NCBI GenBank assembly: GCA_021162935.1 | Contig: JAGGXR010000063.1 | Span: 10,043-74,042, forward strand | Source: Deltaproteobacteria bacterium | Lineage (GTDB): Bacteria > Myxococcota_A > Polyangia > HGW-17 > SLPX01 | Direction: 5' to 3' | DNA length: 64,000 nucleotides | Shown here: positions 22,681 to 45,850 of the stretch, in pieces | How the letters are laid out: each line of letters begins with the position of its first letter | Position numbering within the stretch: the first letter of the stretch is position 1 | Notes under the pieces: generated by a model | Database searches by the model: none | Told to the model about the DNA's origin: nothing | The model's input: only the letters and a program-made list of their open reading frames with translations | Made by a program: the position numbers and the translations under genes

Positions 22681-23613
22681 ATGGTTCCCACGAGAATTTT
22701 GTTATTGGAGCGGAACAAGCTCCACCTCCGGAAGCTGACGCGGGTCCTGACCTGCACCGGTGTCGAAGTCATCCCAATGGAGGACAAGTCCGAACTGTCT
22801 TTGCATTTGGACGACCAACCGGCGGTTTTATGCGCAGACGCGGTGGATCTGTCTTCCGTGGTCGCGATTCTGGATGCACGTCAGGACATCCGTGCTGTGG
22901 TCTGGACAGCCAGCCAGGACCGCGCCGTCCTGGAGCGGGCGCTCGACCATCCTCGCCTTAGTCACATTTTGGGGCGAGCGTCACCCGATGTTCCTCCGAG
23001 GGAATGGGAGATTCTATGGACGGTGCGACGGATGATAACCGGCGAGCGTCCGTCGCTGGCCAGCCTGTTGCATTGGGGGTACACGGGCTTCAAAGAGACG
23101 GTTCGTACCCCACGCGATCGGGACCTGTGCGTCGAGGGAGTCGTTCGTTTTTGTGAGCGCCTCAATACGCCCGGTCGAGTTCGGGAGATGCTCGGGGAGT
23201 TCGCGCACGAATTGTTGATGAATGCCATGTACGATGCTCCAGTCGACGCGGCTGGACAACCCAAGTACGCCCATGACCGAAAGGCGCAGATCGAGTTGTC
23301 CGACGACGAAGCCGCGGTGATCCGCTGTGCGTCTGATGGGACGAAAATTCTCATTTCGGTGGTGGATCGGTTTGGGAGATTGCCACGGGACAAGGTGTTT
23401 TCCGGGATGCTCCGCGGATTGGATGGCGGAATCATGGATAAAAGTTACGGCGGAGCCGGTCTTGGGATGGTATATGTCTATAAGGCGAGTGTTGTTTCGA
23501 TATTTGACGTCGAACCAGGCAAGCGAACCGAGGTGACCGGGATTTACGAATTGGACCTGAATCAACGAATTTTTCGAACTTTGCCCAGGTCAGTGCATGT
23601 ATTCATCGGGTGA
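22681..23613 (+). CDS. Degenerate receiver-like domain fused to a GHKL ATPase (RsbW/SpoIIAB-like anti-sigma kinase-like), paralog 1
   Basis: The N-terminal about 110 aa have receiver-like topology, but the acidic pocket is replaced (ILLLERN). The C-terminal domain has an N-box ELLMNAMYDAP, a G1-like VVDRFGRL and G2 GGAGLGMVY. Paralogous to 28957-29955. ATG at 22681. Confidence 0.55.
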   Translation: MVPTRILLLERNKLHLRKLTRVLTCTGVEVIPMEDKSELSLHLDDQPAVLCADAVDLSSVVAILDARQDIRAVVWTASQDRAVLERALDHPRLSHILGRASPDVPPREWEILWTVRRMITGERPSLASLLHWGYTGFKETVRTPRDRDLCVEGVVRFCERLNTPGRVREMLGEFAHELLMNAMYDAPVDAAGQPKYAHDRKAQIELSDDEAAVIRCASDGTKILISVVDRFGRLPRDKVFSGMLRGLDGGIMDKSYGGAGLGMVYVYKASVVSIFDVEPGKRTEVTGIYELDLNQRIFRTLPRSVHVFIG

Positions 23614-23694
23614 GACTTGGGACGACTGCCGTTCAGGGTTCGCGCTGAGAAGTGGAAAATATTCTTGCCGGTGTTCTGAAAGAGGAGTGATGCG

Positions 23695-25911
23695 ATGACG
23701 GGAGCAATGAACCAGGCGGGAGGGCAGCCGAAGCTTCAGATTGCGAAGATCGTCGAAGGCGACATCATGAGCCTTCGATTCATCGGGACCATTGATGAGG
23801 ATTTCGATGGGAAGCAGATGGCAGAGACGGTCAAAGGGACGCTGATTTTGGATCTTGGGCAGGTGCGGCGCATCAGCTCTTTCGGTATTCGTGAGTGGGT
23901 CGACTTCATCGGTGCAGCCAGCGAGAAGTGCAAGGCCATCTACTTCGTCGAGTGCTCTCCGAAGGTGATGGACCAGTTCAACATGGTGGCGAACTTTGCT
24001 GGCAAGGGACGCGTCCTTTCCTTTTATGCCCCGTACCGATGCGATTACTGCGACGACGATCGGGTGCGACTCGTTCAGGTGGAGGACAGCTGGGACGATA
24101 TTCAGAACATGCACCTGCCGGACTATCCCTGCGAGTCCTGTGGAAACCCTGAGTATTTCGATGAAGATCCCCAGAGCTTCTTCAATCACTTGATCAACCA
24201 GCCCAAGGTCGAGCCGGATCCGGCGGTGGCCAATTTTTTGGCCACGAAGCTCAACTATACGGTATCCGATGCCGCGAGGCGGCTTCGCATCGAGAAGCAC
24301 ATTGGTAGGGCAACCTATATCAAGTTGGCCGGGGATCTGGATGCCGACTTCCCGAAGAACAAGATTGTCGAGGGGTTGGAAGGCGATGTGGTGTTCGACG
24401 TGGGAAGCCTCGGCCGCATCGACGACGCAGGAGCTACGGTTTGGGCCAACGCCATGCAGGAGATCGCCCAGACTGCGTCGCGTGTCATGGTCAGACACGC
24501 GACACCTGGTTTCATCGAACGACTCACCACGCCCGAGGCGCTCGCCGGCAAGGTGGAGGTGCTCGACCTCTATATGCCGTTTGCCTGTTCCCATTGCGGC
24601 ACGACGGCAGCGCAACTCGTGGACGTGGCCGAGCATTTCGACGTGCTTAAATTTGCGACACCTCCGGAGATGACCTGCTCGGATTGCGGCGCCAAGACCG
24701 ATTGCGTTGCATCCGAGGAGTTCATGGCGCAGGTTGCCGGGCTGCCGAAGCCCGATCTGTCGTCGGACCTGAAGAAGTTCTTCGACGAGGCGGAAGAAAT
24801 CGTCAACCGTCCTCCGGTAGCTGCTGCACAGGGGCCGCAGGCGGGCCTGCCTTCGTTGGGTGGGGGGGCGGCGCCCATGGTGGCGCCGGCACGGACCATG
24901 GGGCTCGCCGCTCTGATTGCCGTGGTGGTTTCATTGGTCGTGGTGCTCGGTGTGGGGCTCATGGTCTGGAAGTACGTCCAGATGAAGAAGACGAAGCTCT
25001 ACGACGAGGCTGGGACCGTGGTGAAACAGAAGGCGGCCAAGCTGCCTGGCTGGATGAAGAAGGCCAAGACGAAGAGTGTGTGGCGTGATGGGGGCGTCCT
25101 GACGGTGGTGGGCTATTCTCACAGCGCCAGGGACAGCGAGCAAGCTCGTCAGTTGGCGGTGGAAGACGCCCTGGAGAGCATCGTGCAAGAGATTGCCGAC
25201 GGCGTGCAGAACGAGGACTGGAAGCAGGCGGTTATGGCCCAATACAAGGACGTTCGATCCGACAGCATCGAGCGCCTCAAGACCGCCATGACCGCAAAGG
25301 ATGCGGATGCCGTTCGAAAAGCCAGGAAGAAGGTGTGGGAAGCGAGACGCCGGGTGGCCAAGGCGTTTAGGGCCACGGCCTACGAGGTGCCCAAGGAGGG
25401 AGACGACTTTTGGCAGAAGCTCAAGACGTCGGACGGCATTCGTTGGCGGTATTGGGTCATCATCCAGGTGGACGAAAAGAAGATCGAGGGGTATCGCCAG
25501 CACTATACGAAGTTGTACAAGACGCAGGGCGTGATCGTCGCAAACTACTTTCCCGGCTTGGCTTGGGCCTATCCGACGGCGACCGCGGGAGCCGTCGTCT
25601 TGAAGGTGGATGCCGGTAGCCCCTGGCGGGTCCCCGGTTTGGAGCGTGGCAATCTGATCGTGGAATGTCGGCGCCAGCAGATTGGCAGCGGCAAGGTTTT
25701 CGTGGAGTCCATCGATGAGACGACGCGGCTTTTCAAGGATTCGGGCGGTCGGGTCGAGTGCAAGACGCTGTACGGGTCGGTGGTGCGGCCGGTCGGGTAC
25801 GAGATTGCCCGGAAAACCCAGCCAAGGGTCCACAACGGCGGGCGAACGTATCCGCACCATCGGCCGGCCACCACGTTCACCGGAAATGTGTGGGACGATC
25901 CCACGAAATGA
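23695..25911 (+). CDS. Membrane-anchored protein with two tandem STAS-like domains, each followed by a Cys4 zinc-ribbon, one TM helix, and a C-terminal PDZ-like domain
   Basis: STAS module 1: LILDLGQVRRISSFGIREWVDF...ECSPKVMDQFNMVANF then FYAPYRCDYCD...CESCG. Module 2: VVFDVGSLGRIDDAG...LYMPFACSHCG...CSDCG. TM segment GLAALIAVVVSLVVVLGVGLMVW. C-terminal region GLERGNLIVECRRQQIGSGKVFVESI. RBS gaaagaggag. Confidence 0.6.
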   Translation: MTGAMNQAGGQPKLQIAKIVEGDIMSLRFIGTIDEDFDGKQMAETVKGTLILDLGQVRRISSFGIREWVDFIGAASEKCKAIYFVECSPKVMDQFNMVANFAGKGRVLSFYAPYRCDYCDDDRVRLVQVEDSWDDIQNMHLPDYPCESCGNPEYFDEDPQSFFNHLINQPKVEPDPAVANFLATKLNYTVSDAARRLRIEKHIGRATYIKLAGDLDADFPKNKIVEGLEGDVVFDVGSLGRIDDAGATVWANAMQEIAQTASRVMVRHATPGFIERLTTPEALAGKVEVLDLYMPFACSHCGTTAAQLVDVAEHFDVLKFATPPEMTCSDCGAKTDCVASEEFMAQVAGLPKPDLSSDLKKFFDEAEEIVNRPPVAAAQGPQAGLPSLGGGAAPMVAPARTMGLAALIAVVVSLVVVLGVGLMVWKYVQMKKTKLYDEAGTVVKQKAAKLPGWMKKAKTKSVWRDGGVLTVVGYSHSARDSEQARQLAVEDALESIVQEIADGVQNEDWKQAVMAQYKDVRSDSIERLKTAMTAKDADAVRKARKKVWEARRRVAKAFRATAYEVPKEGDDFWQKLKTSDGIRWRYWVIIQVDEKKIEGYRQHYTKLYKTQGVIVANYFPGLAWAYPTATAGAVVLKVDAGSPWRVPGLERGNLIVECRRQQIGSGKVFVESIDETTRLFKDSGGRVECKTLYGSVVRPVGYEIARKTQPRVHNGGRTYPHHRPATTFTGNVWDDPTK

Positions 25912-25953
25912 GGCTCGTGACGCAATGAGGCTCGTGACGCAGCGAGGTTCGAG

Positions 25954-27174
25954 ATGAGGAACTGGATTGCATTCGGGCTGCTTGCCTTGGCGGTCATGGC
26001 TGGCACCCCGGCCCGGGGACAGACGTTCTCCAGCCCCCGACAACGTGCCAAGTACGTACGCCTGTATAACAAGGGGAACGCCTTTTTGTATCAGGGCCAA
26101 TATGTTCCCGCCATTGCTCATTTCAAGCAGGCCATTGCCATCGCCCCCCAGTTGCCCGGTGCCTGGCGGCAGCTCGGGTTGGCCTACGAGGGCATGGAGG
26201 AGTATCGGTCGGCCATCAGGGCCTATCAGCAGTATTTGAAGTATGCTGGCACGAGAGGAAAGTACGCCGTCAAGGTGATGCTGCGCATCAACGTGTGCCG
26301 GTCCAAGGTTGGGCTGCCGCCGAAGAAATTCGAAACCTTCCTGACAGGACGGCCGGGCATGGTCAACGTGACCTGCAACGTCGAGGGTGCTCTGGTTCGG
26401 GTCGACAACGTTCAGCGAGCTTCGACGCCGACCGGTCCCTTGCCAGTCTCCCCGGGGTTGCACACGATCACGGTCTCCAAGGTGGGGCGTTTGCCCTGGA
26501 GTTCCTCGATTGTGATCCAATCGGGGCAGAACGCCTCGGTGAACGCGGTCCTCAAGCCCGATCCCTCGTATCATCTTATCGTAGTTCGTCCGAGAATTGC
26601 CGTTCCCAAGACGACCCGGGCCTCGGTGATCATGAGGGTCAACGTCAAGCAATTCCAGGTGTTCGCCAACGGCAAGCGGGTGGCTTCTGGTGCTACCGGA
26701 GCCTATGAGTTGGGATCGGGGATCTGGCTGGTCGAGGTGCGGGCGCCTGGGATGCTGACCTGGAGCCGTAAGGTGTCTCTGGGCAAGGGAGAACATCGGG
26801 TGTTCGACGTTCGGTTGTACAATCGAAAGCGGCAGATTGCATTCAGTCGATATGCCTGGGCGACCTTGGCGACGGCGGCCGCACTGACCATCGTGGGCGC
26901 TGGATTCGGGTTTGCCGAGGACCATGCTTATGAACGGGTTCGAGATCGGGATGCATCGTCGAGGCAGGAACTGGATGACTTCGCCCGTCGCGGTAAGGCC
27001 TATCGAGCGGTTTCTTTGACCCTGTATGGTGCCGCCGGTGCGGCACTCATCACGTCGGCCGTGTTTTTTTTGCTGCATCACAGGAGTGAGTCTGCGACAG
27101 GCAAAGTCCCTCTGTCGCTATCTGTGGGGCGCAGGGGTGTTTCCCTGTCCTTTACCAGGGAGGTGGATTTCTGA
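25954..27174 (+). CDS. Secreted TPR plus PEGA-domain protein with a C-terminal TM anchor
   Basis: Signal peptide LLALAVMAGTPARGQ. TPR-like AIAHFKQAIAIAPQLPGAWRQLGLAYEGMEEYRSAIRAYQQYL. Two PEGA-like modules (MVNVTCNVEGALVRVDN..., IWLVEVRAPGM...). TM segment WATLATAAALTIVGAGFGFA. Confidence 0.65.
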   Translation: MRNWIAFGLLALAVMAGTPARGQTFSSPRQRAKYVRLYNKGNAFLYQGQYVPAIAHFKQAIAIAPQLPGAWRQLGLAYEGMEEYRSAIRAYQQYLKYAGTRGKYAVKVMLRINVCRSKVGLPPKKFETFLTGRPGMVNVTCNVEGALVRVDNVQRASTPTGPLPVSPGLHTITVSKVGRLPWSSSIVIQSGQNASVNAVLKPDPSYHLIVVRPRIAVPKTTRASVIMRVNVKQFQVFANGKRVASGATGAYELGSGIWLVEVRAPGMLTWSRKVSLGKGEHRVFDVRLYNRKRQIAFSRYAWATLATAAALTIVGAGFGFAEDHAYERVRDRDASSRQELDDFARRGKAYRAVSLTLYGAAGAALITSAVFFLLHHRSESATGKVPLSLSVGRRGVSLSFTREVDF

Positions 27175-27599
27175 TGCGGACAACGGTCTTGTGGTCGCTC
27201 GTCGTCTCCGCTCTCGTCATGGGGAGTGGCTGTCCTCTTGGTCACGACCAGTACGATACGTCCCGGAGTTGCGTCGAAAATAGCCAATGCCCCGGCAGTG
27301 AGATCTGCCTTGCTCCAGATGCATCAGTGGGCGATGGCGGCGGGTTGGCTCAAAGTACCTGCCAGGCCGAAGAGGGGCTGACCCGTTGCGTCTTCGGCGA
27401 TGCCGGAGTTTCCTACTACTGTTCGTCGTCCGGAGCGTCTTGCTATCACCAAATAAGGACCTGTCTCGAATTCGACCGTGATGCGGGCTGTCCAAACGGC
27501 TGCGAGGACGATGCGGGCAATCAATGGGACGCGGGTTGCACCAAGTGGCAGCCGGAGCGTTTTGGATGCCACGAGGCGAAATCCGGGAGGTATCGATGA
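27174..27599 (+). CDS. Small Cys-rich secreted lipoprotein
   Basis: Signal peptide plus lipobox LVMGSGC. 16 Cys in 141 aa. Start overlaps the upstream stop and the stop overlaps the downstream start. Confidence 0.45.
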   Translation: MRTTVLWSLVVSALVMGSGCPLGHDQYDTSRSCVENSQCPGSEICLAPDASVGDGGGLAQSTCQAEEGLTRCVFGDAGVSYYCSSSGASCYHQIRTCLEFDRDAGCPNGCEDDAGNQWDAGCTKWQPERFGCHEAKSGRYR

Positions 27600-28915
27600 C
27601 CATGTCACCACGCGGATCGTCTCGGCAGAGCAGATCGGCCCTTGCTCCGCATGGAGCGGTCCGTCGGGCATTGCTGGGCGGGGCGACATCGTTTATCCTG
27701 GCGGTGGTTTTATTTTGGACCTTTCCCGCCCGAGCAGGCGGTTTCACGAGGGCGACGGGCATTGGAGCCCGGGCATCCGGCATGGGCGGTGGCTTTGCGG
27801 CTGTGGCGAGTGATGCGTCGGCCGTATTTTACAACCCGGCTGGCTTGGTGACCATCCCATCGGATGTGCTGGTGGGGTCGGAGTTGGTCTTCATCATTCG
27901 GAAGTACCAACCTTCCGGGGGCGAGATGGAAAAGGCGTCGACCGTTCCGCTTCCGCTTCCCTATGCCTTCGGGTCCGCTCGGTTCTTGGTGGGACAGGGC
28001 ATCCACATGGCGCTCGGTTTGGGGATCTATGCGTCTCAAGGGGGGGCAATCGAGTACAAGCAGCGGCCCATCACGGAGGGGATCGTCAAGTCCAGGGTCG
28101 GCCTGTATGAGTTCGTTCCTGCCGTGGCTCTCGAATTGAGCCGCAGGGTCCATGTGGGAGCGAGTCTTCGGATTGGACTCGGGTTCTTTTCAGTGAATCG
28201 CGGCTGTGGAGACCTGCTGAGCTGCAACCAAGGACGGATGGCTCAGACATTCACTGTGTTGGACACGATGTACGGGGTGGGATTCGGGTATGCGCTGGGC
28301 ATCCTGGTGGAGCCGTTTGACGGATTCACGGTGGGCGCCACGTATCATTCGAACATCAATGTGACGGCTCGCGGCAACGGTGCTCTGCATGCAGGAGGAG
28401 CCACCTATGATACGTCGGTCCGGCTGCCGTTTCCCCAGAGCGTCAGGCTCGGATTGGCGTACCGTATCAACCCGAAGTGGCTCGTTGCCTTTCAGGCGGA
28501 TTGGGTCGACAATTCCAGCTTTCAGGAACTGTTCGTGGACGTCAAGAAGGTGCATCTGCCGCGTTCTTTGATGACGACGCAGATGGATTGGGTTGACAGC
28601 TACGCCGTGCATGCCGGGGTGGAGTTCCAGCCGTTGTCTTGGCTTCAGGTGCGTTGGGGAATCGTTTACGATTCCAGTGCCATCAAGCTGCAGTATCGCA
28701 GCCGTGACCTGGAGGATGCCGAGAAGATTGGCTTTGACGCGGGCGTTTCGTTCCTGTTCGGTCGATGGCGTATCGAGGCCAGCCTGGATACAATGATGGG
28801 CGATGTGGCCAATGGGTTCAAGTCCGTGACGGTGCCCCAGAGCGCCTTGGCGCCTGGAAAACACTATCCTGGAGGCGCGGTCTACACGCACCTGGCTGCC
28901 GGCGCCCGTTTCTGA
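27596..28915 (+). CDS. FadL/OmpP1/TodX-family outer-membrane hydrophobic-compound transporter
   Basis: GARASGMGGGFAAVASDASAVFYNPAGL is the family N-terminal signature. About 14 predicted beta strands and a C-terminal aromatic residue. Start at the ATG at 27596 (ATGA overlap). Confidence 0.75.
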   Translation: MTMSPRGSSRQSRSALAPHGAVRRALLGGATSFILAVVLFWTFPARAGGFTRATGIGARASGMGGGFAAVASDASAVFYNPAGLVTIPSDVLVGSELVFIIRKYQPSGGEMEKASTVPLPLPYAFGSARFLVGQGIHMALGLGIYASQGGAIEYKQRPITEGIVKSRVGLYEFVPAVALELSRRVHVGASLRIGLGFFSVNRGCGDLLSCNQGRMAQTFTVLDTMYGVGFGYALGILVEPFDGFTVGATYHSNINVTARGNGALHAGGATYDTSVRLPFPQSVRLGLAYRINPKWLVAFQADWVDNSSFQELFVDVKKVHLPRSLMTTQMDWVDSYAVHAGVEFQPLSWLQVRWGIVYDSSAIKLQYRSRDLEDAEKIGFDAGVSFLFGRWRIEASLDTMMGDVANGFKSVTVPQSALAPGKHYPGGAVYTHLAAGARF

Positions 28916-28956: not shown

Positions 28957-29955
28957 TCAGACGGTCGAAACCATGGCTTCAGCGTCTTCGTCCGGATCAA
29001 TGGTGAAAATGTGGAGAGAGTGGGCGTCGTAGTACGGATCCTTGGCGTTCTTGCGGAGGTCGAAGAGGCAGATGACTTCCGTGGTCTCACCTGGTTTCAC
29101 ATTGGCTACGAAGCGGGACACGGATTGCATGACGAAGTAGAGTCCAAGGCCGGCGCCCAAATTCGGGTCGCGGAGGGGCTGGCCTTTTTCTTCGGAGGCT
29201 CGGACGAGCTGATCGAGTACCTTGTTTTTTCTGAGTTGGCCGTAACTATCTTGGACCGAGAGGGCCAGGAATCGACCGTCACAGGCGTATCTGAGCAGGA
29301 CAGATTCGGAGCCTACCGCACCCCCTCCCGGTATCGCCCGCTTCATGAGATCGGCCCTGGACGCCCCCTGTGCCAGGACGGGTGCGTCGTAGAGGGCATT
29401 CATGAGGAGTTCGTCCGCCACCACTTCGATTCGGCTGATGGCATGTCGCCGGATGCCGACGGATTGGGCGAAATCGGCGATTTTCTGGACGGCCGCGCGT
29501 TTTTCGTCGTAGGTCGCAATGGTAGCCTCGTGGGCCACTGTTCCCCAAGTAAGGTATTTTTCCAAACCAAAAATATCGTGGGAAAGCAGCTTGATGCTGG
29601 TGACCACGAGTTCATCCTCTTCGAGAGGCGCTTCCCGGCACAGTAGGTTGTCGCACTGCTCCTGGTAGAGCAGGTTCAGTCCTTCCTCCCAGCGTTCCCA
29701 GTTACCCACGAGCAGGAGATTGGCAGGCCAGGTGACCGAGGCCATGAGTTTGGTCACGGCGTCCGTGTCCGCCGACTGTTGATCCACGATGATGATGGCG
29801 GGGTGAAGTTTACTGAGGTTGGACAGGTCATCACATGAGTCAGCGAAGGTCACTTGCGTTCCGGTGGCCTGGAGCGTTCTGCGGACCATACGGCGCAACT
29901 TGACGTCATTGGTGACGCAGACACACGTATCGATCATTTTCATAGGAGACTTCAT
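28957..29955 (-). CDS. Degenerate receiver-like domain fused to a GHKL ATPase, paralog 2
   Basis: Receiver-like N-terminus (AIIIVDQQSADTDAV, acidic pocket degenerate CVTND). N-box ELLMNALYDAP and G2 LGAGLGLYFV. Divergently transcribed from the 2068-aa TPR gene. Confidence 0.55.
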   Translation of the reverse strand: MKSPMKMIDTCVCVTNDVKLRRMVRRTLQATGTQVTFADSCDDLSNLSKLHPAIIIVDQQSADTDAVTKLMASVTWPANLLLVGNWERWEEGLNLLYQEQCDNLLCREAPLEEDELVVTSIKLLSHDIFGLEKYLTWGTVAHEATIATYDEKRAAVQKIADFAQSVGIRRHAISRIEVVADELLMNALYDAPVLAQGASRADLMKRAIPGGGAVGSESVLLRYACDGRFLALSVQDSYGQLRKNKVLDQLVRASEEKGQPLRDPNLGAGLGLYFVMQSVSRFVANVKPGETTEVICLFDLRKNAKDPYYDAHSLHIFTIDPDEDAEAMVSTV

Positions 29956-30406
29956 CAATTTTCAGTCTACCTGCATTTTTACTATTTCTCAACTTTTTTT
30001 CGCCGTCTTTTTGCGTATCTTTGTCGTTTTTTACTTCGGTTTCTGGCCGGTCATGGGAAACACTGGGCTCGGTCGGTGGAAATACGGGTTATGAGTCCGG
30101 TCGGTTGATGGCATCGGCCCCCATCGAATTGCTGGCTCGTTGACGTATGACTTGCATGCATGCTGATTTTTGCGAGATACCCTGGAATCGTTTGCTTCAT
30201 GGTTGTGGCCGGAGCAGAACGGAGATATGGTGCCCTGGTGACCTATCGGGAGCATGTGAATGTCTGTTGGCGCATCGGGCGTCGGGGTATGTGGCTGACA
30301 AGGAATCGTGCCTGGTGCCACAGATAGATGGCACGCTTCGCCTCGTGGTTGTGATTCTGGTGAATTGTTGTAGTTTTTTGATGCATCAGCCCTGAAGAGG
30401 GGAGAC

Positions 30407-36613: not shown

Positions 36614-36775
36614 GAGGCTGGTCAGAATGAATCTGCCATCTGGAACGCCGATTCATCCCGTCTGGCTTTGTCGCTCCTCGGTTGCGTACCACCCGGTACG
36701 CGCCCTCGTCGCTTCGTGCCAGACGGGTGCCTCGACGCCCCAAATTGGCAACCCTATTTTGAACAGCCTCCTTAG
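36610..36775. mobile_element. MITE-like element, full copy B (166 bp), inverted relative to copy A
   Basis: Runs ttaggaggctggtcagaat ... ttttgaacagcctccttag. About 93% identical to the reverse complement of 2931-3095. Abuts or overlaps the 3' end of the giant TPR gene. Confidence 0.8.
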
Positions 36776-36907
36776 CCAGTTGTGTCGGTGTCTGGAACCG
36801 CACCAGTGAGCTTCTGGACAACAAGAGTTTTTGTGGATAGTATTGCATCATATGTCAACAGCACATGCTAACCAAATACGCGGCGCTTTTGTGACAGCAG
36901 AGGTCCC

Positions 36908-37846: not shown

Positions 37847-38358
37847 TCCACGAGTTCTTTTTGGACCCCAAGGAGGGCCTCGTTGCTGGACAGGAGTTGT
37901 CTGGTCCGTTCCTGAACTTTCTCGACGAGACGTTCTCGTTCTCGTGCCTCCGTTTCCAGCATTTCTTGGTACTTGATCTGCACCATGGCTTCGTCAGTGA
38001 CGTTTCGGAGAATGACGAGCGCCCCGGTGATGGTTCCGTTGTCATCGCGGAGGGGAATACCGCTCATGATCATGTTGATGGCGTCTTCGGACTCCTTGGG
38101 CTTCCCGACGATTTCATCGAGGCGGACGTGGCGGCCTGCGTCCATGCATTCGGCCCCGATGTCCCGTTCGATTTCCATCACTTGCCCGAGCGTCTTCCCC
38201 TTGAGTTTTCTAGCGATATTTCTCGGGAAGAGACCGTAAAACATACGGTTGAATGCTAGGATATGACCTTCTTTGTCCACGATATAGTAGGCGTCGATGA
38301 TGACGTCACTGAATTTTGCAAAGGTTTCGATCAAGTCCATATCGTCCACACCTTCCAA
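37822..38358 (-). CDS. PAS-domain protein with a C-terminal coiled coil
   Basis: 178 aa. PAS-like core ([25 protein letters not shown]...[13 protein letters not shown]) followed by a heptad-rich tail. Confidence 0.5.
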
Positions 38359-38804
38359 ATCCGAATCAGTTCTAGTGAGACATATCTACGATCCGCGCGT
38401 CCAAAAGTCAAAAGGTAGACGGTTCGATGGGGGCCTAGGAACGATTCATGGTCACGGAGCAGGGCACCGTCGTTCTGCCAGCCTTCCTTGGGGCCATACC
38501 ACTGCTTGGTCTCCAAATCTTGGATCGTTTCTAAGTGGGTGCCCGATAGCCGTTGACCTTTGCCGGTATCGTCCGTAATATCGCCACAGTGAGTGGGGTA
38601 CTGGACTTGGCCCGCTGGATGTGGCGATGAGGTTCGTTTGATAATGGGTTGCTAGGCAGCGACCCTGCTCGCGAGGCTGTCAAGGCTTGAGGAAGGCGCG
38701 TGTCGAGCTTATTTCCATGAAAAGCTGCCGCCTGTTTTGATAGATGCAGCCCCGGATGTTGAGACAATCGTGACCGACTTTTCTAGGTATTGAGGTGTAT
38801 GACC

Positions 38805-40565
38805 ATGGCACGAGGTATGTCCATTAGTGCAAAGATGATTGTGACGACGATGGGGTTGCTGGCCTTCGTCATCGTGTTGTTTGCCTATCTGAACTATCGG
38901 AACGTGACCAAGGTCTATGGTGATTCCACGGAGCGGCAGCGTCAGACATATGAAAAGAGCATCAAGGATGCCGCCGCCGCACAGATCATTGCGTTTGCAG
39001 AACCGAGCAAAGCAGCCATGCAGGAAGAGAATTGGGCTGCAGTGCAGCAATTCGTGGTTCCCATTCGCGAACGTGACCCACGAATTTTGTACATTTGGAT
39101 TGCCAACTCGGCGGGCAAGATCGTTGCCTCTGCCGATGAGAAGGAAAACAAGCGCGTTTCGAACAAAGTGGCCCAGAATTTCCTGCTGGATCCGGTTCGC
39201 AAACAGCTCGTGCCCCATAGGATCATTCCGAAAAAGCCATCGGGCAAGGTGTCTCCTATGCGGGTGGCGGGGAAGGTTCAGTCGTTTCATGGCATGCGTG
39301 TCATGGTCAATGCGGAACGGCTCATTTCGCAAGGTGTCTACGTCGGGGCGGTCGTCCTGGTCTACAGCTTGAAACAACTCGACGATATGGTCGGAAAGTT
39401 GACCAGAAGGAAAGTCCGTGAATCGCGAAAGGCCTTCATTCGAACGGCCATGGTGGGCGCATTGTTCCTTCTCGTCGGTGCCCTTTTGGCCATTGTTCAG
39501 GGCGTGAGTATTTCGCGACCCGTAAAGCGGTTGGCGGACAGTGCGGCCTTGATCGCCCGAGGTGACTTGGAATCACGAGTGGCCGTCAATACCGGCGGCG
39601 AGCTTGGACTTTTGGCTCAGAATTTCAATTTCATGGCCGATCAACTCGTGGTCCTGCTCCACGAGACCGCCACCAAGGCCACCATGGAAAAGGAACTGGA
39701 AGTGGCACGAACCATCCAGGAAGCCCTGGTTCCCAGTAACGAGGTCGTGGACAAGAACGGCGTCCTGCAACTTGCCGGTTTCTTCGAACCTGCGACGGAA
39801 TGCGGAGGGGACTGGTGGAGTTTCTTCGACATCGTCGATGACAAAGTGTTGATCATCATTGGGGACGTCACGGGACACGGCGTGCCTTCGGCTATGATCA
39901 CGGCGACGGCGAAGAGTGCCGTGGACACGCTGCGTTTTGTGAAGGATAATTCCTTGTCCGTGACCTATCTCATGGAGATCCTCAACAAGGCCATCTACGA
40001 GAGTGCGAAGCGTCAGTTCGTGATGACCTGTTTCGTCACGGTCGTGGATCTCAAGGCGTTGACCATTACGTATGCGAACGCGGGGCACAATTTTCCGTAT
40101 TTGTATCGGGAAGTGGATGGAAAGGGGCGGTTCAGCGTCTTGATGAAGAGAGGAAACCGACTGGGCGACCTGGTGGAATCCACGTATGAGTCCAAGACGG
40201 AAAAGGTACAGCCCGGCGATATTCTCGTTTGGTACACAGATGGTATCGTGGAATGTGAAAATGAGCGAGGCGAAGAATACGGAGAAAAGCGGTTCCGAGC
40301 GGCCATCAGGCGGGCTCGCAACGAAACCGTGGGTCCGTTGCGGGACGCAGTGGTGCATGAAGCCAACGAGTTTTTCGGCTCCATGCCGAGAAAAGACGAT
40401 ATCACCATGGTGGTGGGCCGGATCTATGCACCGGGCGAGGCTCCTTCTGTTCCGAGGAAGAGGCAAGCTGAAGATGCAGATCTCCAGGGATCTGAGAGTA
40501 CGCAGGGAGCTGAGAGTCCGACGGGGAAGGACGGCAATGGGGAGTCATCAGATGCGACGGCGTGA
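38805..40565 (+). CDS. Membrane sensor HAMP plus PP2C (SpoIIE/RsbU-type) serine phosphatase
   Basis: TM1, a periplasmic region of about 180 aa, then TM2. HAMP (PVKRLADSAALIARGDLESRVAVNTGGELGLLAQNFNFMADQL). PP2C motifs GDWWSF, IIIGDVTGHGVPSAM, VWYTDGI. ATG at 38805. Confidence 0.8.
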   Translation: MARGMSISAKMIVTTMGLLAFVIVLFAYLNYRNVTKVYGDSTERQRQTYEKSIKDAAAAQIIAFAEPSKAAMQEENWAAVQQFVVPIRERDPRILYIWIANSAGKIVASADEKENKRVSNKVAQNFLLDPVRKQLVPHRIIPKKPSGKVSPMRVAGKVQSFHGMRVMVNAERLISQGVYVGAVVLVYSLKQLDDMVGKLTRRKVRESRKAFIRTAMVGALFLLVGALLAIVQGVSISRPVKRLADSAALIARGDLESRVAVNTGGELGLLAQNFNFMADQLVVLLHETATKATMEKELEVARTIQEALVPSNEVVDKNGVLQLAGFFEPATECGGDWWSFFDIVDDKVLIIIGDVTGHGVPSAMITATAKSAVDTLRFVKDNSLSVTYLMEILNKAIYESAKRQFVMTCFVTVVDLKALTITYANAGHNFPYLYREVDGKGRFSVLMKRGNRLGDLVESTYESKTEKVQPGDILVWYTDGIVECENERGEEYGEKRFRAAIRRARNETVGPLRDAVVHEANEFFGSMPRKDDITMVVGRIYAPGEAPSVPRKRQAEDADLQGSESTQGAESPTGKDGNGESSDATA

Positions 40566-42984
40566 GACAGTAGTTCTGGCTTTGATTCTTGCAGCGATTT
40601 GGTCCAGCACGGTGCTGGCTCAGGGCCGAACGAGCACCGTGACGCAGGCTCAGCAGGCTGTTCGGGCCGGGGACAAGGCCTACGCGGCGAAACATTATAA
40701 AGAGGCCGAGGCCCAGTATCGGCGCGCGCTCGCCTACGACATGTCCCTAGTCGGGGCCGTGGAGAATCTGGCGGCCATTTACTATACGCAAGGAAGACAT
40801 CAGGAAGCCGTAACCCTGCTCAGGTCGGCATTGCGTGCGAATTCGAACAATGCCCATCTGCAGGAGTGGCTTGGTCTGCATTTGATCAAGCTCCATCATG
40901 CTGCCGAAGGGATTCGGTATCTGAAGGCTGCGGTCAAACAGGACCACAAGCTTTTCTTGGCGCAGATCAAGTTGGGGGCTCATTATTTGAAGACGAGGCA
41001 GTGGAAGAAGACGGTCGGGGCTTTTTGGAACTTTTTGAAGTACCGGCCAAAGTCTGCCAGTGCCCCGGATCCCGTGGTGCATCGGCTGCTCGGAGTGGCC
41101 TACATGCATCTGGGCCGATACCCCGAGGCTCAGACACGACTGCTCAGGTCTTTGGCGCTCAGACCAAAGTATGCGAGGGCCGAGTTGGACCTGGCCGAAG
41201 TGTATGTCGATCGCGGTTTTTGCGCGCCTGCTCTGGGAATCTTCCGGAAGTACCGCCGGTTGAGGAATCGTCGACCTCGCCTCATCTACCTCGCCTCGGT
41301 CTGCTACTTCAAGACCAAGAGCAAGGCGCAGGCGCTCAAGTCCATTACCGAGTATTTGCGTCGTCGACCGAACAGCCTGCGAGGCAGACTCCTCCTGGGT
41401 GATATCCATTTGTACTACAAGGAGTACAGCCATGCTCTGGCCGCCTTCAGGCGAGCCGTACGGTCGGCTCCCGCGTCTGTTCCCGCTGCCGTGAAGTACG
41501 CATCGGCACTCATCGGCCTCAGAATGTATGGCAAGGCCATTCGGGTGCTAGAAACGACGCTTCCACGGGCGGGAGACAACCCGGAACTCCTCGAAGCATT
41601 GGGCAAAGCCTATCTGAAGACAAAGAAGTATGCGGCGGCTGCCCGATATCTGCGGCGACTGACAGCCGCTCGGCCGAAGGCCGTGGCGGGTTGGGCCCTT
41701 CAGGGGAACGCCCTGTTCCTCATGGGCAAGACCGAAGATGCCATTACGTCGTACCGGAAGGCCCACGCATTGTCGCATGGCAAGAACAGTATGGCGCGAA
41801 ACGGTCTGGTCGCCGCCATGAATCGGAAGGCAGGGGACCTGCTCAAGGCTCACAATCGGCAAGCTGCTTTGGCGCTTCTCAAAGATGCCTATGGGTTGGA
41901 TCCGAGACGCTTGATGACCCTGCGCAATCTTGGCTTGTTGTATCTCCTGTCGGGCCAACCTCGCAAGGCGGTTGCCTTTCTCGAACGGTGTTTTCGCAAA
42001 GTGCCGCGGGATCTGGTGGTCAATCGATTGTTGGGGCGAATCTACCTCGAGCAGGGGCAACTCAACAACGCCAGGGCGAGCTACATTCGGGCTCGGCAGG
42101 CGGCCTATCGTATCGGAGGCGTGGTGCTCGGCGATGTCCAGACGGAGTTTGCGGTGCTGTTGGCCAGGCAGGGAAAATTGGACGACGCCATTTCGCAACT
42201 GAAGCAGGCTATCATCAATACGCGTGTCGACAAGCGGTCGAATCTCGTGGCTCGACGAGACTTCGTGGCTCTTTCGCTCGTTCTTGGTAGTCGCCTCCTG
42301 GAGGCCGGAAAAGGCGATGCGGCGCTCGCGTATCTCGAACCGGCGATCCAGGAGGCAAAGGGCCTGACGGGAACCAAGGCAGCCATGGTTCGTTTCCTGT
42401 TGGCCATGGCCTATGTCGACGTGGCAAAATGGGGAAAGGCCACCGCGTTGTTTCGAGCCATCGGAAAGGGGGGGGTGTTTCGAAAGGTCCTAAAACCGCC
42501 TTATGACAAGTTGGGTCTGAAGTTTTTCGAGGTCTATGCGGCCTATCGTCAGGGACGGTACGGTTATGCGGCGACATCTTTTCGCAAACTTGCCCGGCGG
42601 GCTAAGGGGACGTTACGAAAGAAGATCCAGGATATTCTGCGCTCCTGCAACGAGTACGACGCCACGAATATGCTGCGAAGCGGGCATTTGAAGCAAGCCA
42701 TTGCATCGTTGAGGGCGGCTGCGCGATATGGAGGGTCCCGGGAGGCCCGCCATAATTTGGCTCTGGCCCTGTACCGGGCAGGGCACGTGGCGAAGGCGAT
42801 TCGGATGTGGCGCTCAGGAGGAATGCCTCCCCAGGCCTGGTGCAACCTTGGTGCGCATTACGACAACATCGGGCAGCCTGCCAAGGCGTATGAGTTTTAC
42901 AAGAAGTGCGTGGCTCGGGGAGGTGGGGGCGCCGAGGTGCGTAAGAGGATTCAGGTCAAGCAGAAGCTGTTTGGATTCAAGTAG
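40552..42984 (+). CDS. Secreted TPR-repeat protein (810 aa)
   Basis: Start at the ATG at 40552 (MRRRETVVLALILAAIWSSTVLAQG signal peptide), overlapping the PP2C gene end by 14 bp. TPR repeats throughout. Confidence 0.7.
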   Translation: MRRRETVVLALILAAIWSSTVLAQGRTSTVTQAQQAVRAGDKAYAAKHYKEAEAQYRRALAYDMSLVGAVENLAAIYYTQGRHQEAVTLLRSALRANSNNAHLQEWLGLHLIKLHHAAEGIRYLKAAVKQDHKLFLAQIKLGAHYLKTRQWKKTVGAFWNFLKYRPKSASAPDPVVHRLLGVAYMHLGRYPEAQTRLLRSLALRPKYARAELDLAEVYVDRGFCAPALGIFRKYRRLRNRRPRLIYLASVCYFKTKSKAQALKSITEYLRRRPNSLRGRLLLGDIHLYYKEYSHALAAFRRAVRSAPASVPAAVKYASALIGLRMYGKAIRVLETTLPRAGDNPELLEALGKAYLKTKKYAAAARYLRRLTAARPKAVAGWALQGNALFLMGKTEDAITSYRKAHALSHGKNSMARNGLVAAMNRKAGDLLKAHNRQAALALLKDAYGLDPRRLMTLRNLGLLYLLSGQPRKAVAFLERCFRKVPRDLVVNRLLGRIYLEQGQLNNARASYIRARQAAYRIGGVVLGDVQTEFAVLLARQGKLDDAISQLKQAIINTRVDKRSNLVARRDFVALSLVLGSRLLEAGKGDAALAYLEPAIQEAKGLTGTKAAMVRFLLAMAYVDVAKWGKATALFRAIGKGGVFRKVLKPPYDKLGLKFFEVYAAYRQGRYGYAATSFRKLARRAKGTLRKKIQDILRSCNEYDATNMLRSGHLKQAIASLRAAARYGGSREARHNLALALYRAGHVAKAIRMWRSGGMPPQAWCNLGAHYDNIGQPAKAYEFYKKCVARGGGGAEVRKRIQVKQKLFGFK

Positions 42985-43010
42985 GCAAGAGGACGAACGG
43001 AGTGGATGTG

Positions 43011-43937
43011 ATGAATGCTCAGTTCAGATCGTCGTCGGCGGGGTTGCTGGCGATTTTGTTGGGAGGCATCGCCGTTCTCGTCGTGGCGTTTGCTGTGAGG
43101 CCGGATGATGCGCGGGCCCAAACACCGGGGGGCGTGACGCAACTCGTGCTTGGAATTTACTGCCCGAATGCGAAGTTCGGTGGAAGCGGCGCCCGCTGGG
43201 GGTACATCAATCGCGTGGCGAAGCACGTCGCGAACATCACGGGCATTCCCACCAAGGGCAGAGCGTTTGGCAGCTCCGGCTCTTTCGGAGGTAGTCTTGG
43301 GCGACTGGATTTTGCGGTGGTTGATCCGATTTATCTCTGTCGACACCGGGGCCGTTTGCGTGTTTTGCTCACCGGCAGGATGGGCGGTGGGTCTCGTGCT
43401 TCCTGGGCCCTGTTTGCACGATCGTCGGGTGGTGTCATGGGGTTGCGTGGCAAGAGACTCATCGTTGCCCAAGCCTCGGGGGCTGAGACGAGCTTTGCAG
43501 AAGGCATGTTTTATGGCCAGATTGCCGTGAGCAAGTTCTTTTCGAGGGTGAAGCGAGCTCCCGATCTCGCTTCGGCTGTGGCAGCTGTACGTGGCGGATC
43601 GGCGGACGCCGTTTTCGCCCCCACTTCCATGGGAGGTGGCCTGTCGCGTGTGTTTTCTGCCGGGAGCGTGCCCAACGCCGGGTTCGTGCTCGTTCGCAGG
43701 AGCCTGCCGGGGGCATTGGTCTCCAAGGTGCGGGCTGCTGTTCGAGGGTACGGTGCCGGCGGTGTCGGTGGCTGGGGGGGCGCTGGTGGCTACAGTTGTC
43801 GATTTGGGCGCAGACACTTCTCCATGGCGTCCGTGAGGCCTCGCCCTGTCCGGTTTTCGGGGGCTTCGGTTCTTCGCTTGCGTTTCGGTATGGACTTTTC
43901 CTTACAAGACGTGCAAAAATACTATTGGCGACCGTAG
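43011..43937 (+). CDS. Signal-anchored protein, possibly PhnD/SsuA-type periplasmic binding-protein-like; Gly-rich C-terminus
   Basis: N-terminal hydrophobic segment LLAILLGGIAVLVVAFAV. The segments LVLGIYCPN...GKRLIVAQASG...GGSADAVFAP resemble a type-2 periplasmic-binding-protein fold. Weak call. Confidence 0.35.
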   Translation: MNAQFRSSSAGLLAILLGGIAVLVVAFAVRPDDARAQTPGGVTQLVLGIYCPNAKFGGSGARWGYINRVAKHVANITGIPTKGRAFGSSGSFGGSLGRLDFAVVDPIYLCRHRGRLRVLLTGRMGGGSRASWALFARSSGGVMGLRGKRLIVAQASGAETSFAEGMFYGQIAVSKFFSRVKRAPDLASAVAAVRGGSADAVFAPTSMGGGLSRVFSAGSVPNAGFVLVRRSLPGALVSKVRAAVRGYGAGGVGGWGGAGGYSCRFGRRHFSMASVRPRPVRFSGASVLRLRFGMDFSLQDVQKYYWRP

Positions 43938-43967
43938 GAGTAGGAATGTAAGCGAGGCGACGTGTTC

Positions 43968-44516
43968 ATGGACGTTGATGTGAATCCAAACGGAAGAGAA
44001 TCTGCTGCCGTGGTACCCATGTCAGCAGGCGGTGGTAGTCAGGCCTTGACCTGGAAGGTCGAGGCAGGCCCGGACGGCCTGATCCGGGTGAGCCTTCGGG
44101 GCGAGGTGGATGAGAATGCCAATCTCGTGAAGTTGGCTTCGGATATGAAGGGGCGTGTGACCTTGGATTTGGCCGATGTTCGACGGATCAACTCGGCCGG
44201 TGTACGTGAGTGGGTGAACTTCGTTCGCAATCTTCCGAATGTCGAGGAAATGGAGTTCGTTCGTTGCAGCCCGACGATCGTCAATCAGTTGAATATGATC
44301 TACAATTTTCGGGGTGAAGCCGTCGTGAAAACGTTTTTTGCCCCGTATTTGTGCGAACATTGCGACGTGGAGGTTGATGTCCTCCTTGATGTGGACGTGC
44401 ATTTTCATGATCGGGATCCCAAGCACGTTCCCGAATTTCGGTGTCAACATTGTGGGAATCTTCTCGAATTCGATGACATCCCTGAACGGTATTTTGCCTT
44501 TGTTGCACAAGTGTGA
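43968..44516 (+). CDS. Soluble STAS-like domain plus Cys4 zinc-ribbon protein (third paralog)
   Basis: VTLDLADVRRINSAGVREWVNF...RCSPTIVNQLNMIYNF then FFAPYLCEHCD...CQHCG. Stop overlaps the histidine-kinase start (ATGA). Confidence 0.6.
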   Translation: MDVDVNPNGRESAAVVPMSAGGGSQALTWKVEAGPDGLIRVSLRGEVDENANLVKLASDMKGRVTLDLADVRRINSAGVREWVNFVRNLPNVEEMEFVRCSPTIVNQLNMIYNFRGEAVVKTFFAPYLCEHCDVEVDVLLDVDVHFHDRDPKHVPEFRCQHCGNLLEFDDIPERYFAFVAQV

Positions 44517-45850
44517 TGCCCCCTGAAATTGGTTTGGAATCAGACGTTGCCCTGCCGGATGTGGTTCGTCAACTTCTCGACGGACTGGCGGATGCTGCGG
44601 TCGTTCTCAGGAGGGATCGGACAGTCGTCTACTGGAATGACGCCTACCTCCATTATTCGGGTAAACGTCGTCGAGCGCTGAAGAGGGCGGCTGACGAGGG
44701 GCGTCCGTGTTTCGAAATTTTCGGGCTCGACATTTGCCACAAGGACTGCGCATTGGAGGCCACGGCGCATCTCGGCCGAGCGGTGCGTATGGATGAAATC
44801 GGTGCTGTGCGTGGCGACGGTGAGCACCTGACGCTCATTGTCACTGCAACTCCTCTCGGTCATGGGCTCTTTCTTGAAACGTATCGCGACGTGACGGCCG
44901 ATGCGCGCATTCAAAGGAACTACAAACTCCTCCTGGAGCGAGAGCGGGAGGCCAAAGAGGATCTCGAGCGGGTGGTGGGGGTCAGGACCGAGGAGTTGCG
45001 GACCGCAAATGCAGACCTCAAGGCCGCCCAGGCCATGCTGGTGCATCAGGAGAAGATGTCGTCACTTGGGCGGCTCGTTGCCGGGATTGCGCACGAGCTG
45101 AACAATCCCATCAATTTCGTTTATGGGAACATCGATTTCGTCGAAGAGTATTTCCAGAATGTGTTCAGCCTCGTGAAACGTTACGAGGAACTCTTGCCCG
45201 ATGATCCGGAGACCAAGGCCAAGGTCAACGCCTTCAAGGATGAGATCGAATACGATTACCTGATGCGGGATGCCACAAAGTTGCTGGCCAGCATTCGGTA
45301 CGGCGCTGAGAGAACGGCCTCCATCGTCCGGGACCTCAAGACATTCAGTCGTGCCGGGGCCGGTCAGATGGCCGAAGCAGACCTCGTTTCTGGAATCCAT
45401 GCGACCTTGAACCTGCTCCATTCGGTCATCAAGGATCGGATCGAGGTGGAGTTGGACATCGAGCCGCTCAAGCCAGTAATGTGCAACGTGGGGCACATCA
45501 ATCAGGTGTTCATGAACATCCTTCAGAACGCGGTGGATGCCATCGATGGTCCAGGCAAGATTGTGATCCGGACCAGAAACATGAAAGATGGCGTTCAGAT
45601 CGTGTTCAAGGACAGTGGGTCTGGGATCCCCTATGGGAATATCAGTAAGCTCTTTGAGCCGTTCTACACCACGAAGGGAGTCGGGAAGGGGACTGGTCTG
45701 GGCCTGGCCATCTGTGATGGCATCGTGCGGAGTCACGGAGGGCGCATCGGAGTGGAGAGTCGGCCTGGTTCCGGTGCCGTCTTTGTTTTGGAGTTGCCCT
45801 ACATGCCACCGGACATGAACGCTGCACGTGGTTCTGGCGAGAACGCGTGA
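44513..45850 (+). CDS. PAS sensor histidine kinase
   Basis: PAS-like N-terminus, coiled coil, HisKA H-box LVAGIAHELNNPINFV, HATPase N box (NILQNAVDA), G1 DSGSGIP and G2 GTGLGLAI. Confidence 0.85.
   Translation: MMPPEIGLESDVALPDVVRQLLDGLADAAVVLRRDRTVVYWNDAYLHYSGKRRRALKRAADEGRPCFEIFGLDICHKDCALEATAHLGRAVRMDEIGAVRGDGEHLTLIVTATPLGHGLFLETYRDVTADARIQRNYKLLLEREREAKEDLERVVGVRTEELRTANADLKAAQAMLVHQEKMSSLGRLVAGIAHELNNPINFVYGNIDFVEEYFQNVFSLVKRYEELLPDDPETKAKVNAFKDEIEYDYLMRDATKLLASIRYGAERTASIVRDLKTFSRAGAGQMAEADLVSGIHATLNLLHSVIKDRIEVELDIEPLKPVMCNVGHINQVFMNILQNAVDAIDGPGKIVIRTRNMKDGVQIVFKDSGSGIPYGNISKLFEPFYTTKGVGKGTGLGLAICDGIVRSHGGRIGVESRPGSGAVFVLELPYMPPDMNAARGSGENA

Follow-up and report, generated by a model that had tools for sequence, protein, structure and literature searches.

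A putative serine-phosphorylation partner switch with STAS zinc-ribbon proteins, encoded beside a PAS histidine kinase in a Deltaproteobacteria genome

We analysed a stretch of 64,000 nucleotides (the window) from a metagenome-assembled genome (MAG) of a Deltaproteobacteria bacterium (locus tags J7M25_078xx; G+C ~0.59), in which an original prediction made from the letters alone had placed a membrane-associated partner-switching island, multiplied in its components, at 22681-45850. On balance, we lean towards the explanation that the genes of this region specify a partner switch based on serine phosphorylation. Its switch proteins are STAS domains with a packed C4 zinc ribbon (STAS-ZnR), and its target would be not a sigma factor but most likely the PAS histidine kinase g16. 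The predicted components were confirmed, at the coordinates given for them, by structure prediction and profile searches, and the component set is indeed multiplied and partly membrane-anchored.

In the mechanism we propose, the two GHKL proteins, g03 and g08, would be kinases of the RsbW/SpoIIAB type that phosphorylate the invariant serine with which helix 2 of each STAS partner begins, with g03 acting on the first STAS module of the membrane protein g04 and g08 on g10 and/or g15. The lone HAMP-PP2C phosphatase, g12, would remove the phosphate; it would sense the periplasm through its own domain and probably also through the exported TPR protein g13 and the PhnD-like protein g14. Unphosphorylated STAS-ZnR would bind its kinase and/or its target, most likely g16, which would be translated from the overlapping next gene; in relatives, the g16 counterpart would signal to a CheY-like single-domain regulator. 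Genes g02-g07 would form a second, envelope-spanning input branch using the same chemistry, composed of a FadL-like barrel in the outer membrane, a lipoprotein, TPR-PEGA proteins and an inner-membrane protein that has a PDZ-like domain on the periplasmic side and a pair of STAS-ZnR modules in the cytoplasm.

The gene map, built from the open reading frame (ORF) listing and translation, falls into module A (21321-28915) and module B (28957-45850).

Module A
g02, 21321-22472 (approximate start codon), minus strand: TPR protein with a hydrophobic N-terminal region, divergent from g03
g03, 22681-23613, plus strand: pseudo-receiver plus SpoIIAB/RsbW-type GHKL Ser kinase, paralogue a
g04, 23695-25911, plus strand: two STAS plus C4 zinc-ribbon modules, one transmembrane helix, and a periplasmic C-terminal region with a PDZ-like segment
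g05, 25954-27174, plus strand: exported TPR-PEGA protein with C-terminal hydrophobic helices
g06, 27174-27599, plus strand: small lipoprotein-like protein
g07, 27596-28915, plus strand: FadL/TodX-family outer-membrane beta-barrel
Module B
g08, 28957-29958, minus strand: pseudo-receiver plus SpoIIAB/RsbW-type GHKL Ser kinase, paralogue b, divergent from g09
g09, 30407-36613, plus strand: 2068-aa TPR protein without signal peptide, presumably cytoplasmic
g10, 36908-37846, plus strand: STAS plus zinc ribbon, Ser/Pro-rich linker and C-terminal transmembrane anchor
g11, 37822-38358, minus strand: stand-alone PAS plus coiled-coil protein, paralogous to the g16 PAS domain
g12, 38790-40565, plus strand: transmembrane segment, periplasmic domain, transmembrane segment, HAMP and PP2C (SpoIIE-family) Ser phosphatase
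g13, 40552-42984, plus strand: 810-aa TPR protein with a signal-peptide-like N-terminus
g14, 43002-43937, plus strand: candidate PhnD-like solute-binding protein, membrane-anchored or exported
g15, 43962-44516, plus strand: soluble STAS plus C4 zinc-ribbon switch protein
g16, 44513-45850, plus strand: cytoplasmic PAS-HisKA-HATPase histidine kinase

Switch proteins, kinases and phosphatase

Strong Pfam matches among the ORFs of the island were limited to the phosphatase, the histidine kinase, PAS, TPR, PEGA and the FadL-like barrel, which confirmed the predicted PAS protein, PAS histidine kinase and TPR proteins. The STAS and GHKL domains were weak at this level: STAS in g10 scored 24.0 bits against a cut-off of 22.6, the STAS and STAS_2 matches of g04 (738 aa) fell below the cut-off, HATPase_c_2 in g08 scored 19.6 bits, and g03 gave no match. 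These two assignments were therefore checked by other means, and profile and structure searches confirmed both folds.

The four STAS modules of the window (two in g04, one each in g10 and g15) could be aligned with one another, and predicted structures of the modules support the STAS fold. Four cysteines, invariant in all of them, form a C4 zinc ribbon after the STAS core, a feature that the original prediction, although correct about the presence of the modules, had not described. The g15 family is large and well conserved (alignment A1). Its profile matched TM1442, SpoIIAA and RsbV in the PDB, with an invariant N-S-x-G aligned on the D-S-x-G phospho-site, and in the g15 model the helix at residues 78-89 starts at Ser78, the site of the phospho-Ser in SpoIIAA. 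A partner switch is marked by a single STAS domain in which helix 2 begins with a phosphorylatable Ser/Thr, and this feature is present. SiaC was also among the structural matches. For g10, the NCBIfam anti-sigma factor antagonist superfamily matched at 1.7e-5, under the family cut-off.

The acceptor motifs read INSAG in g15, INSCG in g10, ISSFG in the first module of g04 and IDDAG in its second module (residues ~190-380). The acceptor Ser was invariant in the g15 family (118/118) and in the first STAS module of g04 (Ser62, 120/120). At the corresponding position of the second g04 module, Ser or Thr never occurred among 120 orthologues, which carry Pro (97), Asp (21) or Glu (2), while all eight g04 cysteines were present in at least 119 of the 120. 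Three STAS modules, not four, are therefore phosphorylatable; the predicted count of four modules in three proteins stands, and the predicted serine in all four does not, the second module of g04 having Asp there. The homologues of g04 (n = 616) include some with a PF13180 PDZ domain; a PDB sequence search with the periplasmic part of g04 returned nothing significant.

The family is sizeable. Among representatives of clusters at 50% identity, the A1 profile found 4,488 at E ≤ 0.001, 3,670 at ≤ 1e-10 and 912 at ≤ 1e-30, and ordinary STAS proteins may be among the weaker of these. The combination of STAS and ribbon is not covered by any Pfam or NCBIfam model. Elsewhere in the window, no additional STAS-ZnR or GHKL copies were found. 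Double STAS-ZnR modules were also seen joined to FIST sensor domains (one to three), Hanks-type Ser/Thr kinases or PDZ domains, in proteins of up to 1831 aa (examples are proteins P0420, P0430, P0431, P0458 and P0462 and loci L064, L067, L069, L072, L078 and L082). At compact loci, the double-module proteins end in a Hanks-type kinase in place of the transmembrane helix and PDZ of g04, and FIST or PDZ fusions were seen in other STAS-ZnR members. Given this variety of fused domains, the double module behaves as a transducer behind varied inputs.

The two kinases are paralogues (26% identity, E 2e-24), and all invariant positions of alignment A2 are shared by g03, among them E/N of the N-box, D..G of G1 and GxGLG of G2. 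A model of the g08 family (predicted local distance difference test, pLDDT, 88) showed the SpoIIAB/RsbW fold with a receiver-like N-terminus. The nearest solved structures to g08 were the anti-sigma factors SpoIIAB, UsfX and RsbW, with SiaB also among the structural matches; a PDB sequence search with g08 alone returned nothing significant. Across 121 homologues, the Glu and Asn of the N-box, the Asp and Gly of the G1 box and the GxGLG of the G2 box are invariant or nearly so. Both proteins thus have the N, G1 and G2 boxes of SpoIIAB-RsbW-type Ser kinases, and the absence of ATP-binding residues, which would have told against the original prediction, was not seen.

The degenerate receiver-like N-termini of both proteins, likewise predicted, were borne out. 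The g08-family profile recognises receiver domains (E 3e-5), and the only receiver residue that remains is the acceptor Asp59, kept in 119 of the 121; the acidic pair is replaced by Thr16 and a variable residue, the Thr/Ser by Gly85 in 112 of the 121, and the Lys is absent. A functional receiver controlling a kinase and a phosphatase within one protein was not found here, the PP2C phosphatase being a separate protein.

That phosphatase, g12, gave unambiguous Pfam matches (SpoIIE, PF07228, 8.7e-41; HAMP, 3.9e-13), and its motifs GGDWW, GDVTGHG, TDG and DDIT are intact. Two transmembrane segments enclose a domain of ~180 residues, where the orthologues at loci L061 and L065 carry sCache_3_2. The predicted single HAMP-PP2C phosphatase of the RsbU/SpoIIE type with a periplasmic part is thereby confirmed, and the SpoIIE-family phosphatase of a partner switch is in place. 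Its best NCBIfam match was SiaA (3.2e-26), at 92 bits against an equivalog cut-off of 700.

The putative input proteins of module B are the TPR protein g13 and g14. In most loci, g13, which matches TPR families in Pfam, lies between the PP2C gene and g14. The window's g14 itself had no Pfam match, and PDB searches with g14 alone and with its family profile gave nothing significant. It was placed through its orthologues, 5 of 11 aligned having PF12974 (Phosphonate-bd, best 2.8e-7), and is a predicted divergent PhnD-like binding protein. The giant protein g09 matches many Pfam TPR families and has a ~2050-2130-aa orthologue upstream of the STAS-transmembrane gene in Polyangia loci.

Conserved gene order and the candidate target

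Window proteins were mapped by tblastn onto 80 genomic loci around g15 relatives and onto further loci from exact-protein look-ups; the neighbourhood ORF caller picks antisense ORFs in high-GC DNA (clusters 6, 9 and 11), and only clusters confirmed by tblastn or Pfam were used. In Polyangia (Haliangiales, Kofleriaceae and Polyangiaceae), module B recurs at 25-70% identity in the order GHKL paralogue b (divergent), giant TPR protein, STAS-transmembrane protein, PAS protein (opposite strand), HAMP-PP2C, ~800-aa TPR protein, g14-like protein, STAS-ZnR and PAS histidine kinase. Synteny is strong across Myxococcota and extends to Bdellovibrionota, Fibrobacteria and Omnitrophota. The recurrence of this order in dozens of genomes places the arrangement beyond chance, so that a random juxtaposition of genes was not borne out within either module.

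Module A is kept as a unit, in the order g02 (divergent), g03, g04, g05, g06 and g07, at two related loci, L086 and L087. Orthologues of g02 (Pfam TPR_2, 1.5e-15) lie divergently upstream of the g03 orthologue there (31-49% identity), and g03 orthologues (45-65% identity) lie directly upstream of g04 orthologues. Those of g05 (TPR_1, 8.6e-13; PEGA, 8.3e-9) follow g04. The N-terminus of g06, which has an orthologue in L087, ends in GSGC, and its stop codon overlaps the g07 start as ATGA. Orthologues of g07 (Toluene_X, 2.4e-33) occupy the same position at both loci, and GGGAGG precedes its ATG at 27596. Near module A in L086 and L087, a Hanks-type kinase, an OmpA-TSP_3 protein, a TonB-dependent receptor and a response regulator also recur, in inverted arrangements; none of these lies near module A in the window.

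More distant relatives have compact loci. A Fibrobacteria locus (L061) encodes Cache-HAMP-PP2C, GHKL, STAS-ZnR and TPR proteins; a Bdellovibrionales locus (L069) encodes a double STAS-ZnR protein, GHKL, histidine kinase, receiver, GHKL and STAS-ZnR; and several Myxococcota loci encode a double STAS-ZnR protein, GHKL, STAS-ZnR and histidine kinase. Kinase and switch protein are genetically linked in many lineages: STAS-ZnR is directly preceded by the GHKL gene in Fibrobacteria, Omnitrophota, a Gammaproteobacteria-labelled MAG, Bdellovibrionales and several Myxococcota. In at least two proteins, that of the Omnitrophota locus L065 (3255-4718, 487 aa) and P0440 (482 aa), the pseudo-receiver-GHKL kinase and STAS-ZnR are one polypeptide. 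At the level of sequence, these fusions are the strongest evidence that the two may act on each other.

The organisation of module B points to the gene that follows the switch protein. As in SiaABCD-like operons, a HAMP-PP2C phosphatase, a kinase, a switch protein and then an enzyme are present, with g12 through g15 and g16 on one strand and joined by overlaps or short gaps. The g15 stop codon overlaps the g16 start. The product of g16 matches HATPase_c (3.3e-25), HisKA (5.4e-8) and PAS and has the H-box HELNNP. We examined the gene right after STAS-ZnR in the 76 non-redundant loci with enough downstream sequence, a set dominated by Polyangia: it was a PAS histidine kinase in 60, a PAS-GGDEF cyclase in three, a GHKL gene in one and another gene in 12.

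The PAS-GGDEF genes are in Omnitrophota (L065, 4723-5772), in the Gammaproteobacteria-labelled MAG (L068, 10462-11496) and in a Myxococcota MAG (L073, ~10450-11454), and their PAS domains share 31-40% identity with that of g16 (E 1e-23 and 1e-21). The stand-alone PAS protein g11 (PAS_9, 1.7e-7), which is syntenic, is homologous to the PAS domains of the L065 and L068 cyclases as well (E 3e-17 and 4e-10). A PAS domain shared by two output enzymes, always right after the switch protein, points to the PAS domain, or the coiled-coil stalk, of the neighbouring enzyme as the place where the switch may act. The original prediction had suggested that the output might be the TPR scaffolds or the STAS proteins themselves. 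This is probably not so; the translationally coupled g16 is more likely, because other phyla have a PAS-GGDEF protein with a homologous PAS domain at the same position.

Several observations weigh against this explanation. Each phosphorylation and binding step proposed here is drawn from sequence, models and gene order, and the contact between STAS and PAS from gene order and PAS homology in particular. With Polyangia dominating the loci, 60 of 76 does not amount to 60 independent observations, and at 12 loci no PAS gene follows STAS-ZnR, a TPR protein taking its place in Fibrobacteria. A canonical CheY-like single-domain receiver follows the histidine kinase in 37 of the 60 loci, but none was found in the whole 64-kb window. 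The G1 box of the GHKL kinases reads D-x-[YF]-G-x-L across the 121 homologues, not D-x-G-x-G, so that ATP binding by these proteins is no more than likely. Module A has no phosphatase of its own, and the functional link between modules A and B is drawn from paralogy and from adjacency in this genome.

As originally predicted, a Pfam scan found no Sigma70 or Response_reg domain in any ORF of the island; the relatives, on the other hand, encode the CheY-like regulator after the histidine kinase. In the window, the place of that regulator is occupied by a 1074-aa polytopic membrane protein (45854-49078, minus strand), convergent with g16 and with a weak PMT_2 (dolichyl-phosphate-mannose glycosyltransferase-like) match.

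Competing explanations

The order of events could be reversed, with g16 phosphorylating Asp59 of the receiver-like domain and so setting the Ser-kinase activity of the GHKL proteins. Asp59 is kept, the profile recognises receiver domains, a histidine kinase is in the same operon, and receivers joined to RsbW-type kinases are known from HsbR (PMC6482189) and SypE (PMC10120452). However, the acidic pair, Thr/Ser and Lys of receivers have all been replaced, the CheY-like receiver after the histidine kinase in 37 of 60 relatives is a more obvious phospho-acceptor, and the PAS-GGDEF variants still have the receiver-like domain without any histidine kinase. We consider this reversed flow unlikely.

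A somewhat less probable alternative is a classical anti-sigma switch, in which the GHKL proteins would hold a sigma factor encoded elsewhere and unphosphorylated STAS-ZnR would free it. The nearest solved structures to g08 are anti-sigma factors, and an extracytoplasmic function (ECF) sigma gene with Sigma70_r2, r4_2 and Sigma70_ECF matches lies 5 kb upstream of the island (16968-17600, minus strand). Against this, no sigma factor is encoded in the island or in gene clusters that recur across 85 related loci, the kinases have an additional pseudo-receiver domain that is absent from such anti-sigma factors, and the neighbouring position in relatives is held by enzymes (histidine kinase or GGDEF). 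Moreover, to our knowledge, RsbW-type anti-sigma factors are known for sigma-B/F-type factors and not for ECF sigmas.

The ECF sigma gene is followed by an ORF of 502 aa without Pfam match (the pair spans 15434-17600, minus strand), possibly its anti-sigma factor, and saccharopine-dehydrogenase-like and radical-SAM genes separate this pair from the island. A saccharopine-dehydrogenase-family gene is found near the system both in the window (19071-20219) and in a distant relative (L002, 18277-19632), a recurrence that is possibly coincidental.

That modules A and B are functionally unrelated neighbours, adjacent by accident, we regard as improbable. The two are 1.5 Mb apart on one MAG contig (module A at 193-216 kb, module B at 1707-1728 kb), and g05-g07 were never within 10 kb of the module B loci of relatives. 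The single island of the original prediction thus resolves into two independently conserved modules that merely happen to be adjacent in this genome. Even so, the unusual STAS-ZnR and pseudo-receiver-GHKL families are common to both modules; no phosphatase is encoded in module A, and in Myxococcus and Anaeromyxobacter one HAMP-SpoIIE protein is the only SpoIIE-type phosphatase (PMC2887360); and compact loci elsewhere line up a double STAS-ZnR protein, GHKL, STAS-ZnR and histidine kinase. This alternative touches only the unity of the island and is compatible with a partner switch acting on g16.

Least probable is a stressosome-like assembly, in which the STAS proteins would form a large complex that sequesters the kinases until stress releases them: sensor-STAS fusions are present in the family, but RsbR and RsbS were weaker matches than RsbV and SpoIIAA, the HAMP input of the PP2C phosphatase leaves no relay from an RsbT kinase to an RsbU N-domain, and two of the STAS proteins are membrane-anchored and unfit for an icosahedral cytoplasmic particle. 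The "stressosome-type" label given originally found no specific support.

Two further ideas were dropped. A PADLOC scan for defence systems gave nothing beyond a weak, Cys-rich and spurious PD-T7-4 match (6e-5), and the reading as a defence system was rejected. A relation to the Agl-Glt/Nfs gliding machinery of Myxococcus had been suggested by the mix of TPR, lipoprotein and barrel genes; Pfam matches of chosen window ORFs gave no pointer to it, no search specific to Agl-Glt/Nfs having been made. Elsewhere in the window, a NuoF-like gene (Complex1_51K, NADH_4Fe-4S, Fer4) is followed by a GltD-like gene with 2Fe-2S, 4Fe-4S and Pyr_redox_2 (10087-14147), a pairing suggestive of an oxidoreductase that is linked to NADH and possibly bifurcating. 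Almost all 2-kb blocks of the window have a positive GC skew, and the cumulative skew climbs steadily from 0 to ~2.9, matching the plus-strand location of most long genes.

Relation to known partner switches and significance

The nearest system in logic is SiaABCD of Pseudomonas aeruginosa, where the HAMP-PP2C phosphatase SiaA and the small kinase SiaB set the phosphorylation of the STAS-like SiaC, which binds the stalk of the adjacent cyclase SiaD (PMC7647112, PMC8457831). Three of its components came up in the searches here, SiaA as the top NCBIfam family for g12 and SiaB and SiaC in the structural comparisons. SiaC, however, belongs to DUF1987, carries its phosphate on Thr68 and lacks a zinc ribbon, and SiaB has no receiver-like domain. 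The window has neither a DUF1987/SiaC orthologue nor a GGDEF target; instead it has a PAS histidine kinase at the output, two kinases, four STAS modules in three proteins (two of them membrane-anchored), and attached TPR, PhnD-like and outer-membrane proteins. With a different switch protein, a SiaA score far under the cut-off and a histidine kinase as output, the system is not a member of SiaABCD.

The RsbU/RsbV/RsbW and SpoIIE/SpoIIAA/SpoIIAB systems of Bacillus share the same three folds and an acceptor Ser at the N-terminus of helix 2. They differ from the window, which has no sigma factor but has a zinc ribbon on STAS, a pseudo-receiver on the kinase, and HAMP and periplasmic input to the phosphatase. 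Since a sigma factor as kinase partner was found neither in the island nor among the recurrent neighbours, this is not an RsbW/sigma-B-type system, although it very likely works like one at the phosphorylation step. CrsR-CrsA of Shewanella combines a receiver, an RsbW-type kinase and a STAS protein, and CrsR activity is under receiver-domain control. The same arrangement is found in HsbR-HsbA (Pseudomonas) and SypE-SypA (Vibrio fischeri), in which the kinase phosphorylates a single-domain STAS protein and the targets include non-sigma ones; HptB controls HsbR through receiver phosphorylation, and receiver domains likewise control SypE (PMC6482189, PMC10120452). In HsbR, SypE and CrsR, the receiver, PP2C and kinase are in one protein with a working phospho-acceptor, whereas the window has a separate membrane PP2C and a fossil receiver.

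The Hmp (Nostoc), Bgr (Sinorhizobium) and HenR/All4160 (Anabaena) triads of STAS, kinase and PP2C act on enzymes or cell-surface processes rather than sigma factors, and none is reported to have a zinc-ribbon STAS protein, a pseudo-receiver kinase or a histidine kinase as adjacent candidate target (PMC9127174; 10.64898/2026.04.08.717354 and its reference list). Non-sigma partner switches are thus well documented (PMC6482189, PMC10120452, PMC9127174, 10.64898/2026.04.08.717354), and the absence of a sigma factor is unsurprising by itself. RsbRST stressosome modules with alternative outputs, such as that of Vibrio vulnificus, are alike in having several STAS proteins and a kinase (PMC9237108). 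No orthology to RsbR, RsbS or RsbT was seen in the window, however, its STAS proteins are membrane-anchored, and a large particle is unsupported for a system known here from its genes. Two-component or GGDEF genes downstream of RsbRST modules are known in Gram-negative bacteria.

The system had originally been said not to be recognised as a described one, and literature on myxobacterial and Bdellovibrio STAS partner switches and on the MXAN_4562 neighbourhood turned up no account of these genes as a set. A 2010 phosphatome survey is the sole trace: in it, sce8427, MXAN_4562 and Adeh_0917 form a HAMP-SpoIIE orthologue group that supplies the sole SpoIIE-type phosphatase of M. xanthus and A. dehalogenans (PMC2887360); this group may be the counterpart of g12. 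The system is a real, widespread and undescribed variant of non-sigma partner switching rather than something categorically new.

Sigma factors are the textbook targets of partner switches, but a growing number of these switches act on enzymes instead. To the latter the locus adds a widespread, unnamed branch of ~3,700 protein clusters at 50% identity, with a new switch-domain architecture, a kinase with a fossil receiver and a histidine kinase as likely target. A broader proposal, doubtful as it stands, is that STAS-ZnR modules mark out a signalling superfamily, large and without a name, in Myxococcota, Bdellovibrionota and nearby phyla, which would work as a phospho-switch that spans the envelope and is non-transcriptional. 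The outer-membrane FadL-like channel, the lipoprotein and the TPR-PEGA proteins would report through the PDZ-transmembrane-double STAS-ZnR protein, the periplasmic HAMP-PP2C/TPR/PhnD-like sensor would reset the switch, and the giant TPR scaffolds would organise it; the STAS state would directly gate a histidine kinase-CheY-like pathway, or cyclic di-GMP synthesis in other phyla, which would control some activity at the cell surface, for example motility, predation or envelope remodelling. The importance of the system would rise with proof that a STAS switch controls a histidine kinase directly or that module A acts across the envelope, and the exchange of PAS histidine kinase for PAS-GGDEF between phyla offers a clean comparative handle on the former. 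If a partner switch does control a histidine kinase directly, the two main bacterial phosphorylation systems would be wired together in a new way, and this would show how a Ser/Thr phospho-switch is coupled to two-component signalling in myxobacteria-like predators, organisms with large and poorly mapped signalling networks.

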